This document shows, piece by piece, positions 46,078 through 49,000 of a stretch of 64,000 nt of DNA. The number at the start of each line of letters is the position of its first letter. Within the stretch, counting starts at the first letter, position 1. The notes under the pieces were generated by a model that did no database searches, was not told the DNA's origin, and saw only the letters and a program-made list of their open reading frames with translations. The DNA comes from Octopus vulgaris. Its lineage: Eukaryota. The stretch is from contig OX597817.1 in the NCBI GenBank assembly GCA_951406725.2, forward strand, positions 46,500,001 through 46,564,000, given 5' to 3'. The position numbers and the translations under genes were made by a program.

Positions 46078-49000
46078 ATATATACTGAACTTTACAGAAG
46101 TTCCTGCCGGTAATCGGCTATATTTACACACCGAATTCTACCAGTAAATAATTAGGGTTTTTTAAAAAGCCTTTATAGAAATTATTTACTCTTATCATTA
46201 TATTACTATTTGGATTTTTCACTCCCTTTGACAACCTAACTGTAATGCGCATGGCAAAATTTTGGAGGGAAGATTTATGAATTCAAACGTCTATGTAGGT
46301 TTAGCCTTTGCTCACTTTCTTCAAATATTTTGATGTCGCATGGTCAGAAGGTTTGAGGTACGTAGCATTTGATAAATCTATGATAAATCTTTTTCAATGG
46401 AAAGCTGTGCTGAAGAAGGATGTGAAATATATATGCAATATATATGAAATATATATCAAAAATATATGGAATATATATTCAATATGTTTATAATCCAGAA
46501 ACATGATGTTCACAGATAACCGCCAGACTTCGTATTCGTTATCTATTCCTTCTGTTTTGCTTATGTGAATTATAGGGTCTGTCATGCCCGGAGTCCAACT
46601 TTGATAGAAATAAGCATTCTTGACTGCTATTTCTATTTTTTCGGTATGCGGTCAAGCAACCTGTTTTGCCTGTCCCTTTTTCTTATATACAATATATATA
46701 CTGAACTTTACAGAAGTTCCTGCCGGTAATCGGCTATATTTACATACCGAATTCTACCAGTAAATAATTGGGGTTTTTTTAAAAGCCTTTATAGAAATTA
46801 TTTACTCTTATCATTATATTACTATTTGGATTTTTCACTCCCTTTGACAACCTAACTGTAATGCGCATGGCAAAATTTTGGAGGGAAGATTTATGAATTC
46901 AAACGTCTATGTAGGTTTAGCCTTTGCTCACTTTCTTCAAATATTTTGATGTCGCATGGTCAGAAGGTTTGAGGTACGTAGCATTTGATAAATCTATGAT
47001 AAATCTTTTTCAATGGAAAGCTGTGCTGAAGAAGGATGTGAAATATATATGCAATATATATGAAATATATATCAAAAATATATGGAATATATATTCAATA
47101 TGTTTATAATCCAGAAACATGATGTTCACAGATAACCGCCAGACTTCGTATTCGTTATCTATTCCTTCTGTTTTGCATATGTGAATTACAGGGTCTGTCA
47201 TGCCCGGAGTCCAACTTTGATAGAAATAAGCATTCTTGACTGCTATTTCTATTTTTTCGGTATGCGGTCAAGCAACCTGTTTTGCCTGTCCCTTTTTCTT
47301 ATATACAATATATATACTGAACTTTACAGAAGTTCCTGCCGGTAATCGGCTATATTTACATACCGAATTCTACCAGTAAATAATTGGGGTTTTTTTAAAA
47401 GCCTTTATAGAAATTATTTACTCTTATCATTATATTACTATTTGGATTTTTCACTCCCTTTGACAACCTAACTGTAATGCGCATGGCAAAATTTTGGAGG
47501 GAAGATTTATGAATTCAAACGTCTATGTAGGTTTAGCCTTTGCTCACTTTCTTCAAATATTTTGATGTCGCATGGTCAGAAGGTTTGAGGTACGTAGCAT
47601 TTGATAAATCTATGATAAATCTTTTTCAATGGAAAGCTGTGCTGAAGAAGGATGTGAAATATATATGCAATATATATGAAATATATATCAAAAATATATG
47701 GAATATATATTCAATATGTTTATAATCCAGAAACATGATGTTCACAGATAACCGCCAGACTTCGTATTCGTTATCTATTCCTTCTGTTTTGCATATGTGA
47801 ATTACAGGGTCTGTCATGCCCGGAGTCCAACTTTGATAGAAATAAGCATTCTTGACTGCTATTTCTATTTTTTCGGTATGCGGTCAAGCAACCTGTTTTG
47901 CCTGTCCCTTTTTCTTATATACAATATATATACTGAACTTTACAGAAGTTCCTGCCGGTAATCGGCTATATTTACATACCGAATTCTACCAGTAAATAAT
48001 TGGGGTTTTTTTAAAAGCCTTTATAGAAATTATTTACTCTTATCATTATATTACTATTTGGATTTTTCACACCCTTTGACAACCTAACTGTAATGCGCAT
48101 GGCAAAAGTTTGGAGGGAAGATTTATGAATTCAAACGTCTATGTAGGTTTAGCCTTTGCTCACTTTCTTCAAATATTTTGATGTCGCATGGTCAGAAGGT
48201 TTGAGGTACGTAGCATTTGATAAATCTATGATAAATCTCTTTCAATGGAAAGCTGTGCTGAAGAAGGATGTGAAATATATATGCAATATATATGAAATAT
48301 ATATCAAAAATATATGGAATATATATTCAATATGTTTATAATCCAGAAACATGATGTTCACAGATAACCGCCAGACTTCGTATTCGTTATCTATTCCTTC
48401 TGTTTTGCATATGTGAATTACAGGGTCTGTCATGCCCGGAGTCCAACTTTGATAGAAATAAGCATTCTTGACTGCTATTTCTATTTTTTCGGTATGCGGT
48501 CAAGCAACCTGTTTTGCCTGTCCCTTTTTCTTATATACAATATATATACTGAACTTTACAGAAGTTCCTGCCGGTAATCGGCTATATTTACATACCGAAT
48601 TCTACCAGTAAATAATTGGGGTTTTTTTAAAAGCCTTTATAGAAATTATTTACTCTTATCATTATATTACTATTTGGATTTTTCCTTTGACACCCTTTGA
48701 CAACCTAACTGTAATGCGCATGGCAAAAGTTTGGAGGGAAGATTTATGAATTCAAACGTCTATGTAGGTTTAGCCTTTGCTCACTTTCTTCAAATATTTT
48801 GATGTCGCATGGTCAGAAGGTTTGAGGTACGTAGCATTTGATAAATCTATGATAAATCTTTTTCAATGGAAAGCTGTGCTGAAGAAGGATGTGAAATATA
48901 TATGCAATATATATGAAATATATATCAAAAATATATGGAATATATATTCAATATGTTTATAATCCAGAAACATGATGTTCACAGATAACCGCCAGACTTC

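Follow-up and report, generated by a model that had tools for sequence, protein, structure and literature searches.

Metazoan non-LTR retrozymes (Cervera and de la Pena 2020, PMC7229834; Li, Clavereau and Pollet 2026, bioRxiv 10.64898/2026.07.22.740005) are non-coding tandem units, low in GC, that carry one type I hammerhead each and occur as anything from partial monomers to multimers. They live beside autonomous Penelope-like elements (PLEs) and are proposed to depend on them; PLE-type insertion geometry is put forward for vertebrate retrozymes in the second report, in which one of nine retrozyme dimers tested cleaved. PLEs have hammerheads of their own; dimeric forms are established (PMC4209133; PMC6765202), and an extra base after A9 is typical (PMC4209133). 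PLE insertions bear a signature: their tandems are partial, their arms inverted, and one end has a “tail” (PMC8557442), which has been traced to two reverse transcriptase (RT) start sites (PMC11167929).

The array described here lies in a window of 64,000 nucleotides of Octopus vulgaris DNA, the whole stretch that was analyzed, and shares all of the retrozyme traits just listed. By its sequence the element is a non-LTR retrozyme: hammerhead units in tandem that are non-coding, no LTR or long ORF (none of 150 aa or more within the array), and dispersed copies. The class is already known, and the window's element is a variation on it in structure. Units of 616-644 bp exceed the 170-400 nt of PMC7229834 and fall within the 51-972 bp of bioRxiv 10.64898/2026.07.22.740005; other differences from the retrozymes of these reports are a fixed mismatch at the base of stem II, a long variable hairpin beyond an internal loop where loop II would be, the failure to recognize a parent pLTR in the PLE loci compared, and knowledge of the window's element from DNA instead of circular RNA. 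We favor, with reasonable though incomplete confidence, a young, non-coding, dispersed non-LTR retrozyme with a type I hammerhead in each unit, likely mobilized by PLEs, likely cleaving as a double hammerhead, and with a 71-nt loop that is likely a tolerated expansion. The parts are as follows (P, pairing probability).

46040..46084 (no strand): left (TA)n/(TACA) microsatellite flank, the target site, read from the sequence.
46085..51749 (+): retrozyme tandem array, 9 full units (614-621 bp) and a 119-nt partial unit; units 98.7-100% identical to unit 2; right junction seen.
46398..46404 (+): loop I internal loop (5' side) with its closing stem, pairing with 46516-46522; P 0.81, 0.81, 0.41; kept in siblings.
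46405-46515 (+): predicted type I hammerhead, one per unit in 9/9 full units.
46405..46409 (+): stem I 5' strand, pairing with 46511-46515; P about 0.9; covariation.
46410..46416 (+): catalytic box C3-A9, CUGAAGA, from the sequence; in the clan N7 is A or U and C3-G8 alternates with U3-A8.
46417..46421 (+): unpaired A (10.1) at 46417, then stem II 5' strand at 46418-46421; from folding and clan rows.
46422..46492 (+): 71-nt stem II extension, a 3x3 internal loop and then a hairpin of six TA-rich blocks; period about 11 nt, block number variable.
46493..46497 (+): stem II 3' strand at 46493-46496, then unpaired A (11.1) at 46497; from folding and clan rows.
46498..46510 (+): GAAA at 46498-46501, palindromic stem III at 46501-46509, and GUU triplet; cleavage predicted after 46510.
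46511..46522 (+): 3' strand of stem I, followed by UAA of the loop I internal loop and by the strand that closes it; from folding and sibling alignment.
46640..46648 (+): 5' strand of a 9-bp helix that encloses terminal site A, a candidate RT-binding stem; P at least 0.97 for 8/9 pairs.
46690..46700 (+): terminal site A, a TA-rich unit end; 54/176 family 3' ends, a count partly confounded with the query end.
46743..46751 (+): 3' strand of the 9-bp helix (unit 2); from folding.
51741..51749 (+): terminal site B, unit position about 111-131; 85/176 family 3' ends.
51745..51831 (no strand): right (TA)n flank abutting terminal site B; from the sequence and the right junction.

The unit length is 616 bp, and (TA)n lies on both sides of the array. 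The initial annotation had placed the ribozyme at 46417..46510; the motif stands, with its start moved upstream to 46405. Nor does the label “minimal” fit, as stem I is extended by an internal loop and, beyond it, a closing stem (P 0.81). Local folding recovers the hammerhead unprompted, with P of about 0.9 for stem I, 0.88-1.0 for stem II, and 0.45-0.69 for a cis stem III, and the three helices around the core, open at stem I, are backed by covariation. All elements of the core (C3-U4-G5-A6-N7-G8-A9, G12-A13-A14-A15.1, and an NUH site) are present, and the boxes are near-invariant among 72 distinct family sequences, the 3' box having served as the search anchor. Stem II has 4 bp (46418-46421 with 46493-46496). 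At its base A46417 faces A46497: the Watson-Crick pair usual at 10.1-11.1 is replaced by A.A, with a G-C pair one step further out, and the hammerhead is therefore classed as a variant. A terminal loop 2 is absent, and stems I and II each have a conserved 3x3 internal loop, the two being placed alike. A search of Rfam gave no matches at gathering and no hammerhead family among 11 weak matches at E<=10.

The genome searched comprises 2.8 Gb in 227 contigs. Matches to the unit were found at 188 places among the 40 scored of 1,348 candidates, and a 16-mer from the 3' half of the ribozyme occurs at least 470 times in the genome and once in the control, which together with the covarying fold confirms the hammerhead motif first noticed in the window. 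An older subfamily (19 matches versus 1 in the control; about 73-93% identical) has stem I altered on both sides. Over the 72 distinct family sequences, stem I pair 2 is UA in 58, CG in 11, UG in 2, and GG in 1; pair 5 is CG in 63, UA in 6, and something else in 3; N7 is A in 67 and U in 5. Short-loop members of the window's family gave no matches in one search and a single unrelated match in another. Six long-spacer matches taken at one point as a sister family belong to an unrelated multi-kb repeat that lacks stem I, which may be read from its sequence as retrotransposon coding sequence.

These data bear on the simplest alternative, an ordinary satellite in which a hammerhead-like motif arose by chance. 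The silence of Rfam would suit such a satellite, as would the ease with which the loose hammerhead pattern arises by chance (6/16 matches lay in that other repeat without stem I). Compensatory substitutions in the core and in both stem I and stem III, the element's dispersal over many contigs, and insertions with PLE-type geometry argue the other way; since the covariation by itself already largely refutes a chance motif, we regard this alternative as scarcely credible.

Beyond the family lies a sibling clan. A relaxed scaffold pattern matched 868 times against 41 in the control (long loops, 125 versus 18), and the unit shares blocks of about 270-300 nt with two siblings, L243 and L250, at 67-72% identity. 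Parsing 100 scaffold-pattern loci and 5 others gave 81 distinct rows, with 10 more unparsable; 65/81 rows were kept at a threshold of at least 4/6 stem I pairs, a filter that itself imposes stem I pairing, and the rows are related and so not independent. In these 65 rows, positions 10.1/11.1 are AA in 31, CA in 23, AU in 4, GC, AC, and UA in 2 each, and CU in 1, that is, non-Watson-Crick in 57/65. N17 is U in 30, C in 22, A in 12, and G in 1, and the core pair is C3-G8 in 47, U3-A8 in 11, and U3.G8 in 7. Conservation of the core in homologues, the lack of which the initial annotation had named as refuting, is found across both family and clan, with C3-G8/U3-A8 covariation. The A.A at 10.1-11.1 and the GUU site had both been called unusual. 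The first is a trait of the clan (the 57/65 rows just given) and the second, with U at N17 in 30/65, is clan-wide. Judged from these alignments, the 10.1/11.1 mismatch, GUU, and the palindromic stem III are clan traits and not oddities. Hammerheads adjoining autonomous PLE ORFs in the same genome have U.U or C.A at 10.1/11.1. Cleavage at GUU is slower. The triplet is permitted by the NUH rule (PMC12192606), and a natural U.U mismatch at 10.1-11.1 has been reported (PMC3088659).

A further long-loop variant is a multi-copy family (L306, L315, L318, and L323) in which the core is complete, the 8-nt palindrome is perfect, and loop II has 58-59 nt, with only 2-4/6 stem I pairs. At L207:1-1130, on the minus strand, a tandem hammerhead repeat of about 495 bp lies in TA-rich surroundings and shows no BLAST relation to the unit. 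An abundant family spaced at about 594 bp (G000:C1:10836396-10838795 and similar loci) has the motif near site A and is absent from the parsed scaffold loci.

A structural feature overlooked by the initial annotation is the pair of internal loops. Across the 17 types of stem I/III that occur two or more times, stem I has 6 bp (pairs in 15-17/17), followed by three unpaired positions (13-14/17) and a closing stem (12-15/17); stem II has 3 bp, three unpaired positions (13-17/17), and a further helix (13-17/17). Both 3x3 internal loops are mostly AAU/UAA, and that of stem II is shifted by one pair in the window's family. It is a reasonable inference that these twin loops of stems I and II may dock. 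In the newt, internally looped stem I extensions allow the monomer to cleave (PMC6155905), which makes docking reasonable and is a reason not to assume strict gating by dimers. Among the papers listed on hammerheads, Penelope, octopus, and retrozymes, no title or opening of an abstract describes the clan, and no account of the twin internal loops came up; similar motifs may sit in the alignments of PMC4209133 (figs S2-S3) and PMC8557442 (file S1).

Stem III bears on how cleavage would proceed. The palindrome spans 46500-46510; its outer A and U are core positions A14 and U17, so that the usable trans helix is 46501-46509, with 8 pairs and a central G.G. That this stem is weak as a monomer, as first noted, is borne out by calculation: isolated stem III gives +2.1 kcal/mol as a hairpin and -6.4 kcal/mol as a self-duplex. 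In 13 stem III sequences seen at least twice, positions that could pair only in trans (in cis they would close a loop of less than 3 nt) do pair in 17/18 cases (12 Watson-Crick, 5 G.U) with five pair types (permutation P=0.002, an optimistic value since the families are related). The fourth pair of the 9-mer stems, for example, is U-A in the window's family and G-C or C-G in siblings. These patterns support the view that selection has kept the palindrome of stem III for pairing of one copy with another, and sequence and modeling together make cleavage as a double hammerhead of neighboring copies likely. Lunse et al. (2017) reportedly describe PLE hammerheads with a palindromic helix III. Likenesses to the PLE hammerheads of PMC4209133 include palindromic 15.2-16.2 for dimers, the extra nucleotide after A9, a longer helix II, and the U3-A8 variant; unlike them, the octopus ribozyme has a second unpaired base before G12, a trans helix of 8 pairs, a non-autonomous host, and a full-length stem I (5-6 bp) with internal loop and closing stem in place of the minimal form. 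A weak stem III completed between tandem copies is also known from the double hammerheads of newt and ASBVd and the Aedes repeat (PMC6155905; PMC3088659). The mismatch here, mostly A.A or C.A and clan-wide, and the three cis pairs that are possible set the octopus ribozyme apart from these.

The initial annotation had gone further, proposing that adjacent units form a double hammerhead, that only multimeric transcripts cleave efficiently, and that this favors tandem arrays. The first part gains from the trans-only pairs (17/18, P=0.002); folding in native context lends it less. Two linked local copies, in a single-strand model, give -57.7 kcal/mol for the double fold against -51.2, an improvement of 6.5 kcal/mol. 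In the native two-unit RNA the double fold gains only about 1 kcal/mol (-248.1 versus -247.1, with a minimum free energy (MFE) of -255.4 and trans P of about 0.3), both active folds lie 7-8 kcal/mol above the MFE, and stem I P is at most 0.16. As for arrays, an advantage of dimers is inseparable from the fact that excision of a unit takes two sites; insertions carry one same-strand ribozyme in 67/104 cases and two or more in 36.

The opposite case would be a monomer that cleaves well, three cis pairs of stem III (P 0.45-0.69 in the local fold) and loop docking being enough and the dimer an optional boost. The conservation of the internal loops would accord with this, and monomers of coral and mussel retrozymes cleave at 0.8 and 0.1 per min, respectively (PMC7229834). 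The three cis pairs, the internal loops suited to docking, and the mussel and coral monomers are reasons not to assume strictly multimer-only cleavage. In several siblings, however, no more than 2 pairs could form in cis, about a loop of 2 nt, and the trans-only pairs are kept in 17/18 cases; an efficient monomer appears improbable, and the double hammerhead remains our preferred reading.

Read-through transcripts of at least two units would bring palindromic stems III together, each core cutting the GUU of the other unit. The 3x3 internal loops of stems I and II would dock, supporting a core with a non-Watson-Crick 10.1/11.1, and sequence past the internal loop of stem II would be free to vary. 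A released unit would have its ends held by stem I, and ligation could close it into a circle resistant to being cut again. The conserved helix near the unit end would be bound by a PLE protein, which would nick (TA)n; reverse transcription, starting at sites A and B with circular or uncut multimeric RNA as its template, would then yield partial tandems that include an inverted arm. A 613-nt contig from a presumed RNA run circles around the unit with the insert uncovered; a DNA tandem would give the same. Contigs from runs labeled as other organisms (X15, X17, and X20) align to the unit with few differences at 46495-47030 of the window, and the retrozyme family may extend to related species or labels.

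Internal 5' ends of insertions fall within 5 nt of the cut site in 1/167 cases, with 3.1 expected, so linear cut monomers leave no trace. This scarcity invites another reading of the same retrozyme, in which the ribozyme is slow, protein-assisted, or dispensable for most insertions, uncut multimers are the template, and the hammerhead is kept for the long term or as a folding or protein-binding element. The poor population of the active fold in native context would agree with it. So would the core changes that have spread, being present in several insertions or units (U4C in 3 separate older insertions, and G5A in 3/11 units of the array L186), and the GCAA in place of GAAA of an intact 775-aa PLE family (3/3 copies shown). 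The hammerhead of the anole PLE needs protein, and its mutants insert in vitro (PMC11167929). Circular templates, on the other hand, would likewise leave no cut-site ends, and selection on dimer catalysis would be expected to produce just what diverged families show, namely covarying C3-G8/U3-A8, stem I pairs, and trans-only pairs of stem III. We consider a slow or dispensable ribozyme unlikely, if worth keeping in view, and continue with catalysis by the double hammerhead.

Two long arrays, L186 and L187, show 2-unit higher-order repeats that DNA-level duplication, accounting for part of the array length, or copying of a dimeric template may explain. L186 (G000:C1:120154800-120164200) is a 13-unit array in which G5A cores alternate with intact ones; were this alternation real, cutting would occur at every second site only and give RNA of dimer length. 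L187 has its 2-unit repeats with no core change.

The insert at 46422-46492 is 86% A+U, with six TA-rich blocks about 11 nt apart. The sub-repeats of about 11-12 nt first described there, said to be able to pair, are confirmed as to blocks and period; the hairpin they form beats shuffled sequences only modestly (z -1.99; 21/500 shuffles equally good). Within the family the insert has 49-75 nt and four to six blocks, and siblings hold 13-63 unrelated nt at that place. No family copy with fewer than about four blocks was found (the spacer is never below 59 nt). Such a floor is not required of a wholly neutral loop and gives a function a slight chance. Capture of the insert from the 11-nt array of an intact PLE was considered and dropped, degenerate microsatellites matching it equally well. 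We take the 71-nt loop to be a likely tolerated minisatellite expansion and likely neutral cargo.

Pairing of the UA-rich extension with (TA)n target DNA, offered as speculation by the initial annotation, would make the insert a functional guide or otherwise an aid in targeting. The persistence of at least about four blocks in all family copies examined can be cited for this, as can the similar TA-rich array of 11-nt period in the terminal repeat of an intact PLE. Siblings that lack the extension nevertheless sit in (TA)n: of 20 sibling insertions whose loops are short and non-TA, 19 are followed by (TA)6 or more no further than 700 nt downstream (in most at a distance of about 200 or 300 nt), the figure for random windows being 44.5%. 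Insertion ends also show no enrichment in the insert (3' ends, 2/37 off-site ends with 4.6 expected; 5' breakpoints, 22/167 with 20 expected), the 3' ends having likewise removed the insert as a priming site. The blocks comprise just 8 alternating bases and fold on themselves, and the insert finds equally good matches in degenerate microsatellites and in the PLE array. A guide role is very improbable on these grounds, and a neutral expansion is the reading we retain.

The form of the insertions points to PLEs. In a non-random sample of 104 other insertions, drawn from the best-scoring or first-listed matches, 72 are inverted, with two RNA-3' ends facing outward; 67/72 have one arm ending at site B (unit position 111-131). 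The other arm of these 67 ends at site A in 36 and elsewhere in 31 and never gives B/B, the counts for site A being partly confounded with the query end. In an earlier set of 86 insertions, (TA)n follows 56/69 B ends, 20/45 A ends, and 2/26 5' ends. The 9-bp helix is fully paired in 13/15 clan rows, in a search that required both halves, with only G.U-type changes; a motif containing its 5' strand has 2,790 genome matches versus 0 in the control. Partial tandems, an inverted arm, a tail with two 3' ends, and a microsatellite target, the geometry of PLE insertion, are all found here. The anole Poseidon element PAc (PMC11167929) and non-autonomous Chlamys elements such as MRC1 (PMC8557442) resemble the octopus insertions in their two preferred 3' ends, inverted 5'-truncated arms, partial tandems, and AT-rich or microsatellite targets. 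Differences from PAc and MRC1 are a tail of about 119 nt instead of 30-40 nt, ends that are both TA-rich and joined to (TA)n, and the lack of a coded protein.

Candidate sources of the machinery are at hand: the genome has two intact young PLE families, one with a 781-aa RT+GIY-YIG ORF and one with a 775-aa ORF (150 of 6,136 GIY-YIG candidates were scored). Both ORFs carry the cysteine linker, a feature assigned to Neptune/Nematis (PMC8557442). Sequence like the unit was absent from 70 PLE-centered loci, apart from separate clan insertions, and from 20 loci of the second family. Mobilization by a PLE RT/GIY-YIG protein is likely, as we infer from the insertions. A bolder proposal, possible though short of likely, is that the clan is an undescribed hammerhead subclass in which AAU/UAA loops would dock, cleavage would be gated by dimers, loop II would be a cargo port of 13-75 nt, and the 9-bp helix with the A and B ends would be a Neptune-type RT signal for both inverted strands.

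Much of the value of these loci lies in the natural comparative set they form: at least a dozen families in one genome, with stems I and III, loop II, and the core pair each varying independently of the others. Such a set gives sequence-level evidence for the double hammerhead and points to a tertiary contact between internal loops. The variant escapes Rfam, and descriptors that limit loop II to short lengths would lose the long-loop members. With young copies beside intact PLE proteins, the role of PLE-associated hammerheads should be directly testable in vitro.

Several neighboring observations concern the PLEs themselves. The young intact PLE with the 781-aa RT+GIY-YIG ORF (L063:3139-5481 and 6233-6400; also L061, L066, and L072) has an overlapping upstream open frame of 479 aa that lacks a convincing Pfam match, and its terminal repeat combines an 11-nt-period TA-rich array resembling the stem II insert with a minimal hammerhead of the U3-A8 variant. 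The 775-aa family (L341:3410-3450; also L342 and L354) has many identical copies and GCAA for GAAA in 3/3 copies shown; its older relatives L215 and L223 keep GAAA. A tiny PLE hammerhead at L051:2044-2080 (the same locus as L206) pairs A3 with U8 in its core, has 2 bp in stem II, and is palindromic in stem III. Elsewhere in the window, at 21542-25669, lies a frame-shifted LINE-like coding region, unrelated to the array, with endonuclease-like and RT-like frames of 511 and 375 aa.
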